Assembly (NCBI GenBank): GCA_036172245.1
Contig: JAYWIR010000011.1
Coordinates: 1,178,001 to 1,242,000 of the forward strand
Direction of reading: 5' to 3'
Source: Raillietiella orientalis
Lineage: Eukaryota
DNA length: 64,000 bases
The notes under the pieces are model-generated. The model did no database searches and was not told where the DNA came from. It was given only the letters and a program-made list of their open reading frames with translations. Each line of letters begins with the position of its first letter. The stretch's first letter is position 1. This document shows positions 9,871 through 54,613 of this stretch, one piece after another. Made by a program: the position numbers and the translations under genes.

Positions 9871-11279
9871 CCGCCTCCCCTTCGTGGGCATGATGGACCT
9901 CGCCGGGCGCCCCCTCTTTTTCCTAATGTAATAATTGGGATCTGTGAGCCTTTTGGTTCCATGGATTCCTGCAAGAGTGATAAACTCCCCAGGTGTGAAA
10001 TCACGAAAAGTCCCTGTAGCTAGTCAGCTGTAATTAAAATGCCTTGGGTTTCACTTATTATCAGTTGGTCTCTCTCTGAATTTCAAAGTATGATTGCTTG
10101 AAGGTAGGTCGCCTTGGAATGCTGGCTTGAAGCTGGCAAACGGGAAAAGGCACAGCAACACCAGAGAACCAGAGCAGGTGGAGCTCGCCGGAATTCTTGT
10201 AAGGCGTTCGAAGAAGATTGGAAGCAGATGGCAAACATCACACACATAGTCGAGAACCCGACCAGAACTCGAGTTTCTCCCAAGAACCAAAGTGCATCTT
10301 AAGGACGATGGGTAGCAGCAGCGATCCCTGGCGATTCTTTCGTATCTTCATCTCCTCCTCCTTGCAACAAGCACGGAACCGGGATGAACCCGAGGCCGTG
10401 TCGGGTGCAGCCGACCGGTGGAGTTTCGGGTAACCACTGGAGGAACTCACTGGAGACTTCGAAGCCTTTGGTAAACTCCCTTGCCTTTGGTAGGGATTCA
10501 TAGTAATTGACGGGATTCGGCACACACTGTCTGGGGTTCACATTTCTCTCAATCTTCTTCTTTGCCTCTTCGAGAGGGCGGACCTCCACGTGAAGTGTGT
10601 GTAAACGACCGTTCGAAATGTGAACAAACAGTCGAATCGAGTCTCAGGTGTCCTGCTGCCAGAGGGGGTGGTCTTGCTGGTCCAAAGTGTCGCAGCCAAC
10701 ACCGAGGAAGCAACATTGCATGAATGTTGGTAGGACGTTTTGCCTCCCCCCCCCCTTTCCACAAATTAATAAATGCCTGGAAGCTGAATTGGATTACGAT
10801 TCATCGTCACATAAATTATGAACGAAACGGTTAAAATGACGATACCCCTCATATGCTTCCTAACGGATCGGCTAAAACAGAGCACGGGTGCTTATCCGTG
10901 AAAATTAATTGGTACAATGAAAAGTGGATTGCATCGATTTACAACTGAAGTTTCATTAGCAACAGGTATTGGAAAAAATATGGAGGTAAGTCGTTATTTG
11001 CCAACAAGACATACCAATTTTGGAACTGTTATATATATATATTTCTTTTTCATGAATCTGATTCAGAAATGAAATACCCGAGATTGCTTTTTCTGGTGCC
11101 TGTATTTAAATAATGTACATCTTAAACTTTAGTTTACATTATTTAAATACTATAAGTTAAATTATAGATTGATCTTTAAAAAACTGTTGTAAGTAATTCG
11201 CATGTTTGTTAAATGATATTCATTAAATATAGTAAGGTAGTTGAAGCTTCGTTTTCTTATTGAAAACTTGTATCCACAG

Positions 11280-14200
11280 TTGCCGGACATTCAGAAAATA
11301 AATATGCTCATGCAATGGAATTCCTTATAATCATTAGTTGTTCGGTTGCAGCTTTGTTTGTATTAATTGCCTTCATGTGTTCATGGTGCCTAAAAAAAAG
11401 ATGGAAGAGGTAAGTATTTGTAAATCTTTTGGATACAACTGCCAACCTTGATAATTTTAATCTGTTACACCTTATACTTTCAATACACTTTACATAAGTT
11501 AGTGCTCTGATGAATTTTGTTCCAGTATACCAACCATGACAAGAGAATCAAGCACCCACCTTGTATATGATGATGTTGTTGTGGAAGACAAAAGGTGACT
11601 TAACATTGAGTGTTTTGAAACGTGCTAACATAAAGAGTGTAACTTATCCTGGAAATTCTGGGAAAAGTTGTAAATATCACTTCATTGCTGGAATTGGGAT
11701 TTTAATTCTGTATTGAGAGCTTGATTAGTCATGTTCTAACAAGGTCAGTTTCAAAACCAGACTATACCTGGTGACTGATAATTCAATTGCTGTGTATTGA
11801 TTCCATTATTCATTTCAAAAGGTAGATCTGGTTTATGGATGACCCCATATTTGTGTTATATTCTACTACGCCATTTGTTGTTTGAATTTTCAAACACTTT
11901 AGTTTGTAGTGGATGCTATGGTCATGCCAAATGAATGAGTGCCCTCTGTGATCAAGTAAAAATTTAGGCTAGCATCCTGAGTGCTGAAACTTCTAAACTT
12001 GTTAATGTATACAATGGAAATTGACATATTTTATGACTGGAGAATATTGAGACAGATATGTTAACACCTTTAGAAGTACAGTTTTCAATGATATCTGACA
12101 AAATGCAGCCTGGAATTTCCATTTTTATGCAGAGTTGACATTTCAGATAGTTTATGTTGCTCACTTGTTGAGAGTATGTGTTTTGAAATTTCATCTTTCA
12201 AACACAGTCACTCACACAATGAGCTGAGACTCTCTGAACTACTTTTTGCTGTATACAAAGGCATTATTCTCTGGAGAACTATTCACAATTAGTTTGACTT
12301 TGCTTGTTTTGTTCAGATTAAATTATTCAGTCATGCTGTGATGCATTTTTGTATTTCCATTATCAAGCAGGTGTGCAGTTTATGTGCTCCCATGAAAATA
12401 TTAGCCAAATAGCATGAACTTGTTGCAGTTGCATATGAAGATTCTTGAATGCTTTTGATTATGCTTTGAATTAAAGGATGCAAGGTACCACAAATGCAGT
12501 CATGCTAAATGCACTTTTTGAAAACTAAGCATTCAGGAATTGCACTATATTGTAAGGATTTGATAACAAATATTTTCATGAATGCTTCCTTATTCCCAAA
12601 TGATCAAGAATATTAAATGATCCGATTTTATGTGCTAATCTTTTAAATTTGTGAAACCTGATTCTGGATGATCTTTGGCCAAAAAACTGCAGGACAAAAA
12701 GAAAAGCAAAATTGCATTAGCTGAATCATTCCCTATTTACTAATTGAAAATAAAAACAACTCAGCTGGATTTTTAAAGTTCTAGCAGCCAATAAGTAAAC
12801 TGAATGGTGCATTTGGATCCTTGAAAATATGGAACTATTATTTGTTTTTTTCTCTCTCTCTCTCCCTTCTTAAGAGGAAGATTTTAATGTATGCTTTTTG
12901 TTGTTGTGGCATTTTCCAGTCCAGTATAGAATGGTTCGTTTCAAATTACCGTACATGTTACGTGTATTTCCCATCATGTAAATACTGAACTGAATTTCAT
13001 TTTAGGAATTTTGCAAATGTGATACAAGTAGCCTCCGTTGAAAGCCTGCTGACATCAGTAAACGAAACGGATGACAGGATATTGACAGGTAAACCAACAT
13101 ATGGAATAAGATCCCCGAAATAATTCGTTAAAAAACAAAAAAAAAAAAAAAAACATTGTAATGTGAGCCATTTGGCGATGTACCTTGTTTTCTTCTATTA
13201 GAAAACGGCAGGAAAAATGTTGATTGTGCATGTGGGGAGGGGGGGGGGCATGCAATTAATATTTAATGTGTAAAGCCTGGATAGTTTTCATCTCATATGA
13301 CTATCATCATTTGTACTCTCAGATGCTTCAGCGAATGTTACGAATGATACCGACGTTCCCGCTCATCCAGAGAATGATCCAGATGAAGAAAAAATGAGGT
13401 ATGGATTGCATAAAGGTTTTAGTCGAGTACTGAATGCAGTGGACGTGGTTCCCGAAAGGCAGAGCATGGAGCTCTTTGAGTATAACTGATTCGGTGATTT
13501 CGAGTGTTTTGTGTGAACCCGGGACCGCCCCGTGCGTGAACCACCACAAACCACCGTGAAGACGAAAAAGTCTGCGGGTCACATGTAGCAAAATATGCTC
13601 TCCTTGAGGGATTCCGGTCGGCAAAGCTTGCACATCGTTTGCGAGCCCGGAGCCGGAAAATTCCAGGGGGTCCTGGACCGGACGGGATGCGTATTCTGGC
13701 GCCGAGCGGTGCGGTGGCTCATACCGATGGAACTACTTGCGTGCCTCTTAGCCGCCGCCCAGTAGTGCACCGTCGAGCGTGCGCGTGCTCGTGTTGGGGA
13801 GGATGGATTTGGACATTCCCCGTGGCGGTTCTCCCGAGTATCGTTTTTCCTCGCGCAAGGAAGCTTGAACGTCGCCAACCTCGATTTGTTCCAACCGAGA
13901 AGTACTCGTCCTCGTCCCGATGTTCTTTGCTGCCGTGCGTGATGTGTGTGTGAGAGGATGCTTATCTGTACCAAAACGATAAAAAGCAGTCCCTCGCTGG
14001 AACAAGGTTGAATATTGCAGGGGGAGAATGCAAACGGTTCTTTGGCGAATTCAATCGGAATTGTGCGCACCACGGGTTGTGCTCCCCCTCCCCCCGTTTG
14101 CGGTCACCAAGTTCGGGGCACCATCAGACATGACCTTATTTCACCTGTTTCGTGTGGATGCTTCCGTGCTGTGCGAGATGGGGGGGGGGAGGGGGAACAA

Positions 14201-15723
14201 GTGGCGGTTCCCATGGGTGGAGGTGAGAGAGAGCCAGCCCTCGTAATAATTCTGTAGGTAATCGTGATTACATACCCATCATGCCGCAGATGTACACGTG
14301 TGGCGCATACCACCCGTCAGAAATGTTGGTAGCTTAGCTCGTTTATTTACATTGCTGCATTACGGATGAACCGTCCGCCTCCATTCAACACTTTGCGTTG
14401 CAGCACACCAGATGTGTTCCTACCAAACGCTTCCAGTCGTGAAACTTCTGCGGAGGTGGTGGCTGACGACCCGGCAGCAGGTCAGGATGCAGCTCGTGCA
14501 GAATGCCACAGCGTGGAAGCTTTTCCGACCACGTACACGGAGCACTTGGATGCCATGTATGATTCAAGTTAGTGAGCATGTAATGTTTGACGGTTTGTGC
14601 ACTGGAAGTTTGTTTCAAATGCTACATGATTTTTTCGTCCAGAAAACTACACAAAGTTGATAATAAGAGAGCCGCTGGAGTTGATTCAAGCGTCCTGCAG
14701 AACGATGGGTGCGAAGAACTCCGACGTGGGCGTCACCGAGGATTCTGGTAAGTCGGCGCGGGAGTTCAGAACTTCAAAAGCATATTAAACAGAAATTCTC
14801 GTGTTCTTCCAGACGAAGTGTATGCCGCCATCGACTCCGGGGCCTCTACTGTGGATAGTGAAACCTACTGCAGGATCGAAACGCGTGCCGACCCCCCGGT
14901 CCCCCCGAGCCTGGACAGTCTGAAAATGCACGTCTCCTGCGGCGAAAAGTTCCCCCCCGCCAGCGGTAAGCAGCTTCCGGCCAGCTATCGAAACGAAACG
15001 GGCAGAGCAGGCAAAAGGGGTCGCTCGCGCGACCTCGCACATTGCAGAAGCTCTCTCGGTTGCGGGGGTCTCTCCCTTGCCGCCACGGCTTCGGGCGAGG
15101 GAATGGTAAAAGGTGCACATTTCATTTTAGAACTGCAAGCAAAGCTAATCAGGAGGGAGTTGAATTCCCCTTTGCCTCCTGCGCCCGATGCGAATGCGGA
15201 AGCCTCGTTGGACGATTTGTACGCCAAGGTTCAGAAATCCGGCAGCAGATTCAGCAGCCCCGAATGTGACGCGCAAAGCAACAGCGCGGCCGCAAGCTGC
15301 GCCACGGCATCAGCACAGGAAGCCATGGACTCGAGCTGCGGTCACGCGGACGTCTGTGTTCCGGCATCGCACCACATTACCGACGACCCCAATTACGAAA
15401 CCATAAAATCGAGCATGGACGATTCCGATGTGGGATATGAAGTTGTTTTGCCCTCTTATACCATAAAAGCTAATAATGAGTTCTCAGAATCATTATGTGG
15501 CAGCCCTAATTACGAAACAATTCAAGAGTGTGTTCAGGAGCACGGATACGAAACGTTAAGATCGCAGACCTTCACCCCCGAATCAAATTCCAACTGCGAA
15601 GGTCTGCATGCATTTGAATCACCAACAGACCCCTTTTATGAAAAAGTGCAAACACCCCATTATGAAACTGTGCGCTGCCCTACTGATTACTTGCCGAATT
15701 CTGGTAACGAACCTCAGATGTGA
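11280..15723 (+). CDS. Putative single-pass palmitoylated transmembrane adaptor protein (PAG/Cbp-like architecture)
   Basis: Phase-consistent GT-AG exons 11280-11409, 11526-11594, 13006-13088, 13323-13398, 14404-14567, 14643-14747, 14813-15723. Start is ATG 11315 or an upstream exon near 10917. Protein has MEFLIIISCSVAALFVLIAFMCSWCLKKRWK, then a disordered acidic tail with YDDV, YAAI, YAKV, YETI x2, YEVV, YETL, YEKV, YETV. Confidence 0.7.
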
Positions 15724-16776: not shown

Positions 16777-19700
16777 TCAAATTGTTGATTTGGAAAAAGA
16801 AACCCGCAAATGATTTGATTCACTTAATTGATGGTTGTGCATTTTCTAGAAGAGAAAAACCGGATACAAATTAGAAGATAAGTGAATTTGATTCTTACTA
16901 TCAATGCAAGGACTGCTTCCTCTACAGAATTTAACTGAATGAGGGCCATCTTGTGATCTTTTCTACAATGAAAAAAATACACAAGCGTATGTAGCACAAA
17001 TGATTTGAAAAACGATGCACTTGCATTATACATGCAAGTCAAGCCTACTACTTACGGAAAGAATTTGAATGCCTTGATTTCAAAACCATCTTTCTCAAAT
17101 GCTGCCAAAATGTCATCCTCGCCTACGCTAGGTCTATTGCTTTCTTGTAAAACTCACACTCCAGTAAAATCAACTTACGGAATGTTGGATAGATGCAAGG
17201 TTGCTGAGGGAGGATAAATATTCTGGTAATTTTTCGAACCAGGCTTTTTGAAGCGATGCAAACTAGAATTAGTGAAATCTTTAGTCAACCCAGCATCTGG
17301 CTGTCCTTCTTTTGGCATCTGCACGCTTTGGTGTTTGGAAAAAATCACTCTAATTTGTTTTCCCCAGACCTTCAGTTTATCTAAATGGTTCAATGCTATA
17401 GAAAACAAGTAGAACTGCCAACATTTACTTAAGCATTCAATACCTATCTGTGCATGCAGGGGTTCAGCCATTTGAATCAGTGCACTGTCTTTCTTATTAA
17501 ACAAAACCTTCACACGTTGCACGTCACCATAAACCCCTGTGGATAATGAAATGAAAAAACAAGACAACGATTGAAAATAAAATGAACTACATATAAATTG
17601 CATTATAATTTGGGAAAAAATTAGGTTGCAGTACTTCTTGTCATTTGCAATTTAAAAATAAAGGATAATGCATTAGGTGAAAGTAATAAATCATCTATTT
17701 ACTCAAAATTTTAATTATACAAATAAAAAAATAAAAGAGAGAAACATACCAAAGAGGGTAAAGAGAGCATCTGGTGTTACTGCCTAATGCATGAAGACAT
17801 AGGCAGAACGTGTGAGCGTTGAAGAGGTAGTCAAAGGTGAAAAATTTTATCCAATAGATGGCATTAGGGAGCACACCAGCAGACAGGAACAGCACAGCAC
17901 AGAATCAGTGGTGAAAAAAGCACGCATTGACAAGGATTCGTCAGTGAAAAAACATTTAACAAACAATTTTAATTTAATAAAAGTATATTGCTACTAAATG
18001 AACTTATCTCAGCTTTTAATAATAAAATGCAAGTAATTTAGAACTAGACTCTTAAAAGCAAAATTAACAAATTTCTTTTGACATTACAACTATAAGAGAA
18101 TTGTGTTTCATACCTCTTCATCCAAATTACTAACCAGCAAAACACACCCATACTGGGACTGGGATGATGATCTTACACCTACAGCAGCCAGAGCCGCCAT
18201 TACATTTCCACCCAATGGCATTCCACCTACAGCCATGCCTTTAAAATACGAAAATCAATAAATGATACATCTCAAAACACACATCAAAACAGACTAATTG
18301 CTATTATTTCACCTTCCGCACACACAAATTACATTTTCGAACATACCTCCAGAACTATTATAAGGAGCAGCTGCTAAAGGTGAACTCAGTCCCATTGGAT
18401 TGAGTGATGCTAACACACCAGGAGCTCCTGTTTAAAGAAGTCTGTACTTAAAAACTAATACAGAACAAAATGCTATGAAAAAAGATTTACTAGACATTAA
18501 ACATGAACTTATGCAATGGTACTTGCGGGATTAAATTTACAATCAGTCATTAAAAACATTGTGAAACTTGTGAAATAAAACCATCCCAACAAAACTTTCT
18601 ACATTTGTAATGTGAGGCTTACCTAAACCAGGATGACAGGAGCAGTATCCCCCCAAAGAACAATTTGCTGAATAGCCATAATTCTCATAACAAGAGCTCC
18701 CTCCCCCCTGACGACAGAGGCTTTTGGTTCCACAATTCCAATCCTCTGTAATCAAAGGAGCAGGAAAAAGTCCAGGGGAAGGATTGGGGCTTGGTCCAGG
18801 AGGTGGATATAGTAATGAAGAATCCCATAGACAGGTATCAGAATGTGAATCATTTCCATTTGGATTAAGAGAATCATGTGATTCTTTACATGTGCACAGT
18901 GAGGAAAATTCTGCAAGGTAAGGGCAGAAACCACAATTCCAACAAAAAGGATGGGATGAACTACAAGGAGCAAGGCAGCAATTTTCTAACAGCGACGTAC
19001 AATTATAAGGTCCCATTTCTAATTACATAGAGAAAGTGACTTAAGTGGAGGTTTGGTTGCTAAATGATAATTTAAGGCAATTGCACATTTTTTGTAGAAT
19101 GACATTTTGAAATCTGTGACAAAAAAGTCTAGCTCTTTTCATTCATGCTTTCCTTTTTCTTGTGTACTGTTATTGTTTCTTTTGGACTCACCAGTTAAGG
19201 AAGCTATCGAATCTAATGCTGCATCACCAGTTGGCAAGTTTGGATTTGTGTAATCTCGACTTTTTTCATTGTTGTATTTAACATTTAAGCTGGATAACTT
19301 AGAATATTCGATTCTCAATGTACAACAGGCATTGTATATATTTTGTCCATCTAAAGACTATGAAAAAATTAACATAACACACTTAAAGTGTAATTAAAAT
19401 GTACATTTTCATCAAACACCACAAAATAAAACATTTAGTTAATACCACAAAATAATAGTTATCTTAAAAAATTCGATAAACACAGTATTATGTTCTCAAT
19501 ACATAAATAAGGAACTACGAAAACTACAAAGCATACCAATTTAGCAGCCTGAGCAGTCACAACATCTGGATACTGAATTAACGCTTGGAATGTATCTAAG
19601 GAAAAAATGCCATAAAATACAACCTACACCAAAAGTAGATACATACTGTTTTTGGTGAATGTAACAATTTTCAATACTTTTCCTACTCTTGAGAATATCT

Positions 19701-22700
19701 GAAAAATAAATGAAAACTGCTACCTTTAAGCACTTGTAATAAACCTGATACAAAACATCCAAAGTTACTGGATACACCATGTGTTCGATTATAACCCTGA
19801 GTACAGTATTTGGACCTCCTTGAGTATCTGCATGACCAGCAAGAGCTTGAGCAGCTTGAAGAGCTGCCTGTGCAGATGCATTCTAAAACAGGAAAATAAT
19901 TTGGAACAAATGTAACTCGAACATAGCATTTTGAAATATGCAATATATTTTGAAGTTTATGTTGAAAATGTTTAACTTTTCTACATACTGCATTGGAGTG
20001 TGTTACATCAGTTTTTAGTTCCTTGTGATTTGAAAACTGTACATATACAGTTCTGTTGCGCAGCTGTGCAGCACAATTAGTAAAATAACTGACCATTGTT
20101 GTTGCTGACACTTCATCACTCATTTCCAAAAATGCCTGCCCAAAAACATTTTTAAGGAATAATGATAACATCCAACATTACTTGATTTTTTCCTTTCAAC
20201 ACCAACACATTAGTTACTCTTCCAAATGGAATTCCCAAATGAACAATCTCAGCTTCGGTTACTTCATTTGGTATGTTCCTTATGTGGACTACACGAGATG
20301 GCTTACCATTTGCCTGAGTTTTAGGTTCCAATTTTACCTGAAAACATTTACGAATTGATGAACCGTATTCGAAAACTGTTTACACTTGGGGGGGGAGAGG
20401 ACTTTTATCTGTCACTGTACCTTTTTGGCATCATTGCTGCTATCTGTGTGATTTTCTTGAGGGCTCATGACAGCACCATTACTTACAGCATTACACTGAG
20501 GCAAAATCTCTTCAGACCCACGCTACAAAAAATTATAAATTGCAAACAATTGCAAAAAAACCTATAGCACTCTTTGGAACAAACACAATTAGCAAATTCA
20601 CCAAAAGCATCTTATTTTGCAAGTTATGAAACAGGAATTCAAACCATAGCATTCCACATCAGCTTGTTTCTTTGCTTTCAAATTTGTTAGCTACTTAAAC
20701 ACATTGCACAATTTGGAAGTGATTCATCTAGAACGCGTTATGTAAAATGAGAGAAATCTCGTTTAGAAATCTGAAAGTTTCTATCATGGAAGATACCACT
20801 GCTAAACTTTCAAAAATTGCTGACTTTTGGTTTCATAAATACATGAAATGTTTTGACTGTTTACTGACAGTTTTAATGAAAGAAACTATACCTCTGGATT
20901 GAATTGATGTTTCGATTTACGCATTACAAAACTACCACTTGGCTTGGAAAATGTTCTTCAATACAATACTCCAAACGTTTTTATCGTTAAGATACTACCA
21001 ACAAATATTGTCTCGTTACTTTTTTTTTTTTTTTTTTTTTTGCAATGAAGGTATTACATTCTGACCATTTGTGCTAAAGTTCATGCCAAGTTCATTTGCT
21101 AGCAAGTGGCTTGAAAACTTTGCTTTCAAAACTTTCAAGACACAAAAACAATTTGCTTATAGGCTATTATCGGTGTACAATAAAAGTTACATTTACAGTG
21201 TACCACGTACTTATATGTATGATGGTTTCGCAAAGTGTTAGCAATGTCATTTTGGTGGAGGGGAGGGGGATTAAGAAATAAAAATTCATGAGTGCTTAAT
21301 AATACAAAATGCCGAAATAATTTGCTTACATAACCTCAACCAAAACTAGGACCAGTAGCATTAAAGCAATTTTATCATAGCAGTTGGTGTTTTTGTGTAC
21401 TCAACACCAAACACTCTAAAATAATTGCATTTTTTTTTTGGAAGAAAATAAAAAAACTTTAAATGTCCATATCTAAAGCAATAAGACACAATGGTTCGTT
21501 GAAGATTGTTTTCTTAAGATGGATACCACCATATTACCAAACATTTAACTCCATAGACAAATGTGCATTTAAACACAGGCATGTAATAAGCACACACATA
21601 AGCACACTTTTTCTTTACGTTTACACAGCACATTTAGAGAAAAGCTACCTGAATCTCAACTTTCCCAACAGTGAAATCATGAAACGTAAGTTTTCGTGCG
21701 ATCGAACTAAAGTGCCTTATGACTTGTACCAAGATTGTACCAAAAAAAAAGATGTTACACATTTTGGACAATTTGAGTACTTTCAACTATGCAACACCCG
21801 ACTGTATTTGCATGACCATGTGCTCCGAACGGCATGAAACTATGGGTGGCCTAAGGCTCGGTGGGTTGGTTACTTTTATCAAAAGTGAGTTGACTAAAGT
21901 GATGTCTGTAGACAAATTCGGCTTGCCCATGCCAAGCGTGCTGGAAAAAATTTACGTTAGGAATCCCAACGAAAAGCTTTGGGAAAAAGGGCGTGGGGCA
22001 CACAGGGCCCAATTAATGAGAAAACGATACAGCACATCAACTGAACACGGTACAGAACCTGGATCTTAATGAGCATTACTCTCCACGAAACAAAAAACCT
22101 TGCTTTTATGTTCAATCAAAATACCTTTCCAAAACTCATAAATCCAGTTATATATTATTTAAAAGTCGTAAAGGTTAGTAGAAGGGCGGGAAAAGAATTT
22201 TGGTTAGCATACTCCAATGCAAACAATTCACAAACTAAAAAACCGTGTTCTAAAAGAAACAACTCAACAATAGACCGCTCGACAACACATTCTATCGTTA
22301 CTACCAGAAATTCATTTACAAGATGCTCTGCAATAAAGATGCCGAAAATCGTCCAAATGATTTACAAAGTGTGAGGTGATATTTTCTGGGACTTGTATAC
22401 TGAACCAAGACTCGGTACGGGTTACTTATGACTGCAAAGGTAAACGAATTCCAACTTCATTTAACTTTTTTTTTTTTTTTTTTTTGAATGTTTACTCTGA
22501 GTTTATGAATGTAATGTTCAGATAACAGGTTTTGTTACACAGTTGAAATATGATACGGTAAAATATTCAAACGCGCATTACATGCAAGTTTCACATAATT
22601 TTTAGCTGTATTTCTTAATTGCAAATTCCCGAAAAATTCAAGATGAATACATTCTTATTGCTAATTTATTTTCAACCTAAAATTTACTGCCGAAAGAATC

Positions 22701-43006: not shown

Positions 43007-54613
<11,607 letters not shown>

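Follow-up and report, generated by a model that had tools for sequence, protein, structure and literature searches.

Self-limitation of PTB through skipping of exon 11 is a textbook case of coupling between splicing and mRNA decay, which was described in vertebrates. Human PTBP1 exon 11 was reportedly characterized as an autoregulatory cassette by Wollerton et al. in 2004. The locus presented here, a 64,000-nt stretch of the Raillietiella orientalis genome (hereafter the window), raises the question of whether an invertebrate PTB gene carries the same feedback circuit together with the same cis architecture. A full-text literature search, with subscription journals mostly outside its coverage so that a prior mention is possible, did not retrieve any invertebrate description of this PTB mini-exon module.

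A 34-nt frame-shifting exon at the start of RRM3

The window contains one PTB gene, which is crustacean-like and for which 15 coding exons (A to P) were modelled; the 5' exon(s) carrying the start codon were not located. The exon layout was obtained by tblastn, and the spliced model is a single open frame of 526 aa with the C-terminus ..SFSKSTI*. This model shares 78% identity with decapod PTBs over 526 aa, and its exon M shares 85-89% identity with named arthropod PTBs. The mini-exon (Table 1) is located between LLVSNL-x-EE and VYGDVQRVK, a position that makes it orthologous to PTBP1 exon 11 and PTBP2 exon 10. As for the vertebrate exon, its length is not divisible by three: it encodes 11 residues and the first base of a G codon. 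The first-pass annotation had described an exon of exactly this length carrying CTCTCTTT and CTCTTT motifs; both the length and the motifs were recovered. The facts that it quoted on PTBP1 exon 11 and PTBP2 exon 10 agree with the available excerpts of Gooding 2006 (PMC1431707) and Spellman 2007 (PMC1940037).

Table 1. Features of the PTB locus (positions in the window; the mini-exon is the exon of 34 nt)
Feature	Position	Strand	Details
PTB/hnRNP I (hephaestus-type) gene	16777..20522	-	15 modelled coding exons
Exon J, 5' of the mini-exon	18114..18238	-	ends ..LDEE; donor GT 18113-18112
Intron 5' of the mini-exon	17784..18113	-	330 nt, GT..AG
AG exclusion zone	17786..17990	-	205 nt; nearest AG 5' of the acceptor AG at 17992-17991
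CACTGAC, candidate distant branch point	17940..17946	-	A at 17941 (-157)
CACTGAT, second candidate distant branch point	17904..17910	-	A at 17905 (-121)
A-less stretch (U/C/G only)	17866..17904	-	39 nt, UGCU/CUG-rich
Predicted helix, 5' arm	17860..17880	-	would pair with the 3' splice site and exon start
Predicted helix, 3' arm	17770..17791	-	acceptor AG (17785-17784) and first 14 nt of the exon
Mini-exon, frame-shifting, start of RRM3	17750..17783	-	exactly 34 nt; contains CUCUCUUU and CCCUCUUU
CU/U-rich element just 3' of the 5' splice site	17721..17744	-	UUUCUCUCUUUU..; from motif density
Intron 3' of the mini-exon	17537..17749	-	213 nt
Exon L, next after the mini-exon	17444..17536	-	tblastn and gene model
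TGA in the skip frame, premature stop	17510..17512	-	ORF 17510..17602

An extended AG exclusion zone and candidate distant branch points

The AG-free stretch of about 205 nt that had been noticed upstream of the mini-exon has exactly this length. A first-order Markov model trained on the introns of the same gene gives such a run a probability of 2.9e-5, and 36 of 100,000 mononucleotide shuffles of these 205 nt, which include 43 A and 30 G, are AG-free. The run is not due to chance or composition. On both strands of the 64 kb, it ranks second among AG-free runs, the sole longer one (251 nt, 31593-31343) being a pure CT microsatellite. As the first-pass annotation had stated for most of them, the other introns of the gene lack such a feature (AG-free zones of 4-55 nt in the remaining 13) and are mostly short, 11 of the 13 ranging from 45 to 179 nt and the exceptions reaching 764 and 213 nt.

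The distant-branch-point class of Gooding 2006 (PMC1431707) calls for an active branch point situated well over 40 nt from the acceptor and for an AG exclusion zone of at least 150 nt, a length that the 205-nt zone exceeds. The available excerpts of this paper give AG-free zones of 381 nt for PTB exon 11, whose verified branch point UACUGAC lies at -351, 438 nt for nPTB and 590 nt for Fugu. For PTBP2 exon 10, a distant branch point at -389 is predicted (Spellman 2007, PMC1940037; Nakano 2012, PMC3464207). The locus therefore resembles PTBP1 exon 11 by its extended AG-free zone, by CUGAC-type sequences far upstream and by CU-rich sequences in and around the exon; it differs by a shorter zone (205 vs 381 nt), by candidate branch points that are closer (-157 and -121 vs -351) and by far shorter introns. 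It also shares with PTBP2 exon 10 a 34-nt orthologous exon, a putative distant branch point and skipping that would be unproductive; in the excerpts available, PTBP2 exon 10 differs in belonging to a cross-regulation network of vertebrate paralogues and in lying in an ultraconserved region.

The CACTGAC that had been placed about 157 nt from the acceptor is present, with a branch-type A at -157. Besides the second candidate at -121, CCCTAAT, within 17860..17880, provides a further one (A at 17864, -80). Branch-like sites are also found closer to the acceptor (TTGAC at -47 and CTCAC at -29), and the last 30 nt of the intron, with 70% pyrimidines and a low U content (0.37), form a tract no weaker than those of the other introns of the gene. 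The branch point used by the mini-exon is probably located at least 80 nt upstream of its acceptor.

Recurrence of the layout in other lineages

The comparative set included 76 metagenome loci encoding PTB relatives, 19 of which were not used (exon uncovered or no recognisable motif). A separate mini-exon was found in 26 genomic loci and is 34 or 31 nt long, i.e. 1 mod 3, in all of them; in two further genomic loci (L019 and L049), it is fused with neighbouring exons. AG-free zones were compared in 20 lineage representatives, which were selected visually and lack phylogenetic independence, after omission of near-duplicates (L011, L012, L013, L046, L065 and L068) and of L050, whose contig ends 45 nt upstream.

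The median length of the zone is 163 nt, vs 37 nt at the acceptor of the next exon, and the zone exceeds this control in 18 of the 20 representatives (Wilcoxon p 1e-4), the control introns being equal or greater in length (86-4467 nt). With a threshold of 140 nt, 11 representatives have a long zone, of 146-470 nt (8-79 nt for the next exon); it is only 1-78 nt in the nine others, one of which has an acceptor of the NAGNAG type, past which 275 nt are free of AG. A mini-exon preceded by an extended zone is also present in genomic loci of arthropod-, annelid-, bivalve- and brachiopod-like affinity, and CTGAC/CTGAT-type motifs lie deep within the long zones. AG depletion is shared by 10 of the 19 other representatives despite little sequence similarity; across phyla, it affects the same intron and always terminates at the acceptor. 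The alignment of the intron between species, which the first-pass annotation had suggested, brought nothing, as the window does not share nucleotide similarity with any locus beyond the exons. Since the zone is short in nine of the 20 representatives and the exon is fused in two loci, the module is dispensable in some lineages.

Predicted outcome of skipping, and skipped transcripts in relatives

Joining exon J to exon L leads to the frame GFMVTCNV*, the TGA of which was found where it had been predicted; it lies upstream of four junctions in the gene model, the next one being 66 nt away, in line with the several junctions announced. In 42 of 46 sequences, the skip frame meets a stop before the end of the following exon.

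Among 29 transcript-like metagenome contigs, four (L003, L016, L023 and L040; 2.1-4.6 kb) lack exactly these 34 nt. Protein identity points to a decapod-like (78%), a Littorina-like (gastropod, 82-85%), an annelid-like (66-69%) and a Pollicipes-like (barnacle, 92%) source, and the contigs represent four protostome species and three phyla. L003 shares 99.1-99.5% identity with L002, a contig that includes the exon, L040 shares 98.4% with L041 and L023 87-93% with L022; no close partner contig was found for L016. When six markers were followed along the 29 contigs, four frame changes were detected, every one at the mini-exon, and no other frame-shifting event was seen. A truncated relative of 343 aa, P0137, was rejected as a skip product, as its sequence continues into intron-like DNA. 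In R. orientalis itself, it is quite likely that the mini-exon is skipped, and likely, to a slightly lesser degree, that the skipped mRNA undergoes nonsense-mediated decay (NMD).

Putative regulators of the mini-exon

Two sets of motifs bear on the identity of the regulators. The first one includes the CU-rich sequences of the exon and of the downstream intron. The density of YUCUYY reaches 111 per kb in the mini-exon and the 20 nt that follow. In the 20 lineage representatives, CU motifs are more frequent in the first 60 nt of the intron following the mini-exon than in the next intron (p 0.013), and the pyrimidine fraction after the 5' splice site is also higher than that of the next intron (p 0.0013). 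The CU-richness of the exon itself is largely explained by the coding of LFTLF. A test for selection of a CU-rich exon at synonymous sites was not significant (pyrimidines at four-fold sites, 0.61 vs 0.57 for the remaining CDS; p 0.28, 26 sequences), and an excess of third-position pyrimidines in the mini-exon (0.73 vs 0.50) was discarded, as most of it results from amino-acid composition. A post-hoc subset of exons seemed biased in synonymous pyrimidine use and was not relied upon.

The second set is found in the AG-free zone. There, YGCY (8 vs 2.8 expected, p 0.004), CUG (9 vs 2.9, p 0.001) and UGCU (5 vs 1.2) are in excess but PTB-type motifs are not (UCUU, 2 vs 3.3; YUCUYY, 1 vs 2.1), unlike in the UCUU-rich zone of PTBP1. 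UGC occurs at -22 and -8 from the acceptor, the majority of UGC/YGCY being located at -80 to -130. Similar GCUG-rich tracts were found in L013/14, L053, L063 and L066. Across the 20 representatives, YGCY is modestly above the control (p 0.03), which is only a hint as it comes from one of several tests on non-independent lineages, and UGC alone does not show any significant excess (p 0.11). Additional regulators may thus act through the UGC/YGCY motifs of the zone.

These motifs could also be taken as the main signal: the AG-free zone and its UGC/YGCY tract would constitute an enhancer code for a very short exon, read by the eMIC domain of Srrm234 or by Muscleblind/CELF-type factors, and inclusion would be controlled, for example, by the tissue rather than by PTB feedback, skipping still being unproductive. 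The enrichment of the zone in YGCY, UGCU and CUG but not in PTB motifs, the UGC at -22 and -8 and the GCUG-rich tracts of other loci agree with such a code, as does the report, in the available part of Nakano 2012 (PMC3464207), that nPTB exon 10 is a key target of Srrm4, with UGC found upstream of Srrm4 exons; a UGC-reading activator is a possible input that the mini-exon would share with PTBP2 exon 10. In Drosophila, the short exons dependent on eMIC combine an extended AG exclusion zone with UGC motifs and strong branch-type sequences, as far as the available excerpts of Torres-Mendez 2022 (PMC8797185) go. According to the same excerpts, heph knockdown did not lift the repression of short exons that have long AG-free zones, which weighs against PTB feedback at the mini-exon. 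However, the eMIC-dependent exons are described there as neural, whereas the PTB mini-exon shifts the frame when skipped and has its UGC motifs mostly 80-130 nt from the acceptor rather than adjoining it; moreover, UGC alone is not in excess across lineages and CU-rich elements flank the 5' splice site. Control by such an enhancer code in place of PTB feedback therefore seems rather unlikely. As the orthologous vertebrate exons, which are 34 nt long and whose skipping is driven by PTB (Spellman 2007, PMC1940037, in the excerpts available), are also PTB-repressed, the code would complement the feedback and need not replace it. Whether PTB itself represses the mini-exon is an evenly balanced proposition.

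The mini-exon could instead be constitutive in R. orientalis, the skipped contigs of other species resulting from low-level splicing errors and the zone being a by-product of composition served by a proximal branch point. Short exons are generally error-prone, and the candidates at -47 and -29, together with the 70% pyrimidine tract, would suit a conventional acceptor. There is also a precedent in a vertebrate paralogue, as the branch point of the constitutive ROD1 exon 10 lies at -21 (Spellman 2007, PMC1940037, in the part available). However, AG depletion exceeds what composition predicts and recurs in 10 of the 19 other representatives, the four frame-shifting events of the 29 contigs all fall at the mini-exon, and the skipped forms were abundant enough to be assembled into contigs of several kb. 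All this makes a constitutive exon improbable.

It is less credible still that the AG-free stretch marks an element irrelevant to splice-site choice, whether the gene of a small RNA, a structured RNA or an enhancer acting at the DNA level. A helix is predicted to join 17880-17860 to the acceptor region and would sequester it (duplex of -26.8 kcal/mol; equally good folding in 9 of 1000 dinucleotide shuffles), but it is specific to the window, being non-significant in 11 other lineages, 17730-18000 does not fold in an unusual way (z -0.99), the 64-kb window does not contain any Rfam family, and the feature is found at the same intron across phyla, where it ends at the acceptor.

A proposed model for the circuit

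The reading retained, with some reservation, is that the mini-exon is probably the invertebrate counterpart of PTBP1 exon 11 and PTBP2 exon 10, i.e. a skippable, unproductive cassette likely to take part in PTB feedback. Its functioning can be depicted as follows. Inclusion of the mini-exon would lead to the full-length PTB with four RRMs. Its 3' splice site would be served by one or several distant branch points, the candidates being those at -157 and -121 of the 205-nt zone, and CU-rich repressor sites would be found within the exon and just past its 5' splice site. We propose that the mini-exon is easy to skip because of its small size, the far-upstream branch point(s) and these repressor sites. 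When PTB is in surplus, it would bind the CU-rich sites and promote skipping, negative feedback being the most likely logic, and factors reading the UGC/YGCY-rich tract of the zone may provide an extra input. Skipping would shift the frame and translation would end after eight codons. Four junctions would then lie 3' of the stop, along with about 494 nt that normally belong to the coding region, making the mRNA a substrate of NMD or, at best, the source of an RRM1-2 product.

Origin of the module

The first-pass annotation had proposed that the vertebrate circuit, including its cis architecture, is present in this invertebrate and has a deep bilaterian origin. The positional orthology, the cis layout of the window, its recurrence in protostome-like loci and the exact skips in four species support this proposal; the lack of PTB motif enrichment in the zone, the largely coding basis of the CU-richness, the proximal branch-like sites and a layout that is not universal weigh against part of it. 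The exact 34-nt skips in transcript-like contigs of four protostome species fit a deep origin. We lean slightly towards a single module, combining a mini-exon of 34 or 31 nt with the distant-branch-point/AG-exclusion architecture, that was inherited from the bilaterian ancestor. Arthropods, annelids, molluscs, brachiopod-like animals and vertebrates would have kept it for more than 0.5 billion years while their introns retained almost no similarity, and secondary losses would have occurred where the exon is fused or the acceptor conventional.

The protostome exon, its frame-shift logic, its splice-site architecture and natural skips in three phyla would then trace the circuit back to the ancestor of bilaterians. 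If this is true, the module would count as one of the oldest examples known of a regulatory feature conserved through the build of a splice site rather than through its sequence, and the circuit would become testable in genetically tractable invertebrates. The lineages also offer a comparative series for the role of the distant branch point, with long and short zones, fused exons and 34- and 31-nt forms. Within this series, the orthologous exon 10 of PTBP3/ROD1, for which the available excerpts of Spellman 2007 (PMC1940037) indicate a conventional branch point and no alternative splicing, resembles the exons of short-zone lineages (L020, L034 and the L057-L075 group), from which the mini-exon of the window differs by its extended zone.

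The PTB gene and its mini-exon

The layout of the host gene was drawn by tblastn with four named arthropod PTBs. The resulting 15-exon model (20522->16777, minus strand) is a single open frame of 526 aa ending in ..SFSKSTI* and shares 78% identity with decapod PTBs, as would be expected of a probably crustacean-like arthropod, the largest exon reaching 85–89% identity with named arthropod polypyrimidine tract-binding proteins. The largest intron (764 nt, 18428-19191, minus strand) interrupts the linker between RRM2 and RRM3, a region in which extra segments occur in named arthropod isoforms; it may harbor an alternative linker exon, and none was identified within it. At the acceptor of exon N (17134-17142, minus strand), a second AG follows 6 nt after the first (..AATAG ACCTAG..); the upstream one is favored by homology (IPPSVGEDD), and use of the downstream one would remove two residues in frame.

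Direct reading of the minus strand bore out every coordinate of the first-pass annotation, i.e., the 34-nt exon, the AG-free zone of about 205 nt and a CACTGAC at -157 (see table). When the mini-exon is skipped (junction 18114->17536), the frame runs on for 8 codons to a TGA at 17512-17510. In gene-model coordinates, this stop lies 66 nt short of the next junction and is followed by 4 junctions and by about 494 nt that are coding when the exon is included, as the annotation had proposed in placing it ahead of several junctions.

Features of the mini-exon region in the window and of the mini-exon in related loci
Feature	Position or locus	Length or sequence	Strand	Remark
Upstream exon	ends 18114	..LDEE	-	direct reading of minus strand
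Intron before mini-exon	18113-17784	330 nt, GT..AG	-	direct reading
Mini-exon	17783-17750	34 nt; 11 residues + first base of glycine codon	-	
Intron after mini-exon	17749-17537	213 nt	-	direct reading
Next exon	starts 17536	first 10 residues read	-	direct reading
AG-free zone	17990-17786	205 nt	-	nearest upstream AG at 17992-17991, hence the length
Candidate branch sequence	17946-17940	CACTGAC, branch A at -157	-	direct reading
Fused mini-exon	L019:3491-4924; L049:5158-5388			TECDHLF-type PTB relatives
Long AG-free zone	L005/11/12	180 nt		cockroach/termite-like
Long AG-free zone	L013, L014	at least 406 and 470 nt		
Long AG-free zone	L028	416 nt		chelicerate-like
Long AG-free zone	L035, L037	259 and 230 nt		
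Long AG-free zone	L052, L058	240 and 210 nt		bivalve-like
Long AG-free zone	L053, L063, L066/68	285, 264, 146 nt		annelid-like
NAGNAG-type tandem acceptors at mini-exon	L044:4866-4872; L046:5161-5167; L050:41-47			AG-free beyond tandem for 275 nt (L044), 310 nt (L046)
Short AG-free zone	L020, L034	69-70 nt		
Short AG-free zone	L057, L065, L070-L075	31-78 nt		31-nt annelid-like group

The AG-free zone and chance

The AG-free zone upstream of the mini-exon is confirmed to be non-random. A first-order Markov model built on the introns of the gene gives P = 2.9e-5 for a 205-nt stretch. Its letters include 43 A and 30 G, and when they are shuffled, AG is absent from only 36 of 100,000 permutations; the stretch is therefore not a mere pyrimidine tract. 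A single longer AG-free run (251 nt, 31593-31343) occurs in the 64 kb, both strands considered; this minus-strand segment is a CT-only microsatellite block (units CTT/CCT/GAAGAG). The 14 introns of the gene measure 83, 46, 106, 46, 51, 179, 764, 108, 330, 213, 48, 45, 93 and 53 nt, with AG-free zones of 36, 44, 31, 16, 26, 22, 12, 30, 205, 48, 17, 4, 55 and 46 nt, respectively. The earlier description of most other introns as short and devoid of such a zone holds: their zones are 4–55 nt, and 11 of the 13 measure 45–179 nt, the exceptions being those of 764 and 213 nt.

Conservation of the cassette

Relatives were fetched from metagenome contigs via the conserved exon M, which yielded 76 loci encoding PTB relatives. 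A separate mini-exon with AG..GT borders was found in 26 genomic loci: it is 34 nt long in 13 and 31 nt in 9, and has dual acceptors in the others (31 and 34 nt in 3, 34 and 37 nt in 1). Skipping shifts the frame for every form, one alternative 37-nt acceptor being set aside, and in 42 of 46 sequences the skip frame meets its stop before the end of the next exon. In two loci, L019 and L049, the mini-exon is fused with both neighboring exons, so that the switch cannot operate there.

The lineage comparison relied on 20 representatives, one per lineage, picked by eye, and on strict zone counting. The acceptor of the next exon served as a control; in the same loci, it is AG-free over 8–79 nt, though its introns run 86–4467 nt. 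The median zone is 163 nt at the mini-exon versus 37 nt at the control, which is exceeded in 18 of 20 representatives (Wilcoxon p 1e-4; 17 of 19 without the window), and 11 of 20 have a zone of 140 nt or more. Among shuffles of their own zones, long-zone loci give an AG-free fraction of 0 to 0.016, and within these zones they carry CTGAC/CTGAT-type branch-like sequences, often CACTGAY, 90–370 nt upstream. Annelid-like loci fall into two groups, one with a 31-nt exon (ATPDDLFTLF) and short zones (L057, L065, L070-L075), the other with a 34-nt exon encoding 11 residues and long zones (L053, L063, L066/68). This division may be a counterpart of the one between ROD1-like and PTB/nPTB-like paralogues in vertebrates.

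Skipped transcripts in relatives

Twenty-nine of the 76 loci lack introns over the region and were therefore treated as transcript-like. The mini-exon is included in 25 of them; in the other four (L003, L016, L023, L040), precisely these 34 nt are missing, and the flanks meet at canonical exon borders. L003 matches the inclusion contig L002 at 99.1–99.5% identity, and L040 matches L041 at 98.4%, so that the members of each pair are isoforms from a single species or population. L023 and L022 (87–93%) and L016 and L001 (88%) come from related species. By identity with named proteins, the four skipped contigs are, approximately, decapod-like (78%), Littorina-like gastropod (82–85%), annelid-like (66–69%, Capitella/Owenia) and barnacle-like (92%, Pollicipes). 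As a control for splicing noise, the reading frame was followed from one to the next of six protein markers through each of the 29 contigs; it changed only in the four skipped contigs, each time at the mini-exon. The mini-exon is skipped in nature in relatives.

A probable switch and its possible regulators

In vertebrates, the regulated exons are reported to be 34 nt long, their PTB-driven skipping producing an NMD substrate; ROD1 exon 10 is reported not to be alternatively spliced and to use a branch point of the conventional kind (PMC1940037). According to PMC1431707, the zone upstream of human PTB exon 11 spans 381 nt, and its branch point, UACUGAC at -351, was verified by mutation; the zones of nPTB exon 10 and Fugu PTB exon 11 reach 438 and 590 nt. 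The vertebrate facts on which the first-pass annotation relied agree with both papers. As the anatomy of the mini-exon, known here from sequence, matches this published case, it is most likely an unproductive-splicing switch. A small exon combined with a candidate remote branch point would be readily repressed. No description of an invertebrate PTB mini-exon switch was found in a full-text literature search of incomplete coverage.

The annotation had proposed that the vertebrate feedback circuit, cis architecture included, is present; this is partly supported. Protostome phyla and vertebrates do share the cassette, the way its skipping shifts the frame, and the extended zone without AG; the PTB-feedback part is weakened by several observations. 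YUCUYY density in the mini-exon and the 20 nt past its 5' splice site is 111 per kb versus 0–38 in the introns of the gene, and in the set of 20 lineage representatives, CU motifs (p 0.013) and pyrimidines (p 0.0013) are more frequent in the 60 intron nt that follow the mini-exon than in the same segment of the next intron. However, the CU-richness of the mini-exon is mainly dictated by its LFTLF codons, proximal branch-like sites occur at -47 and -29 with a 70% pyrimidine tract, and the motifs in excess in the AG-free zone here, which includes a 39-nt A-less stretch (17904-17866, minus strand), are YGCY, UGCU and CUG, with no such excess of UCUU or YUCUYY. According to PMC8797185, short Drosophila exons that combine UGC motifs with a long AG exclusion zone need the eMIC domain of Srrm234, and knockdown of heph failed to de-repress them; nPTB exon 10 is reported as an Srrm4 target in PMC3464207. 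Taken together, these motifs and precedents suggest that a UGC/YGCY-reading regulator may control the mini-exon, alone or together with PTB.

Local RNA structure

A predicted pairing of 17880-17860 with 17791-17770 (minus strand) would span the acceptor and the first 14 nt of the mini-exon. The duplex (-26.8 kcal/mol) is equalled in 9 of 1000 dinucleotide shuffles and is the strongest among the 14 acceptors tested; a local hairpin of 7 bp (17806-17800 with 17786-17780) is a competing fold. Acceptor-covering pairing was seen in the window and in none of 11 other lineages, and the helix is a possible species-specific modifier.

Other features of the window

A 375-aa open frame of YSPTSPS-type heptads (53486-54613, plus strand) encodes the C-terminal domain of RNA polymerase II; the gene for the largest subunit of this enzyme therefore lies on the plus strand. 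Composition is a sharp mosaic, with AT-rich blocks (GC 0.29–0.40 at 10–14, 16–24 and 40–58 kb), which house this frame and the PTB gene, between GC-rich ones (0.55–0.68 at 1–10, 26–40 and 60–64 kb). Two plus-strand frames lie beside the PTB gene (11264-11413 and 14752-15723); one has a hydrophobic membrane-like segment, and the other, a 323-aa frame with repeated YET[IL]/YEKV tyrosine motifs, may encode a single-pass receptor tail. A tandem array at 94-758 is GC-rich and shows periods of 38, 112 and 262 nt nested in one another.
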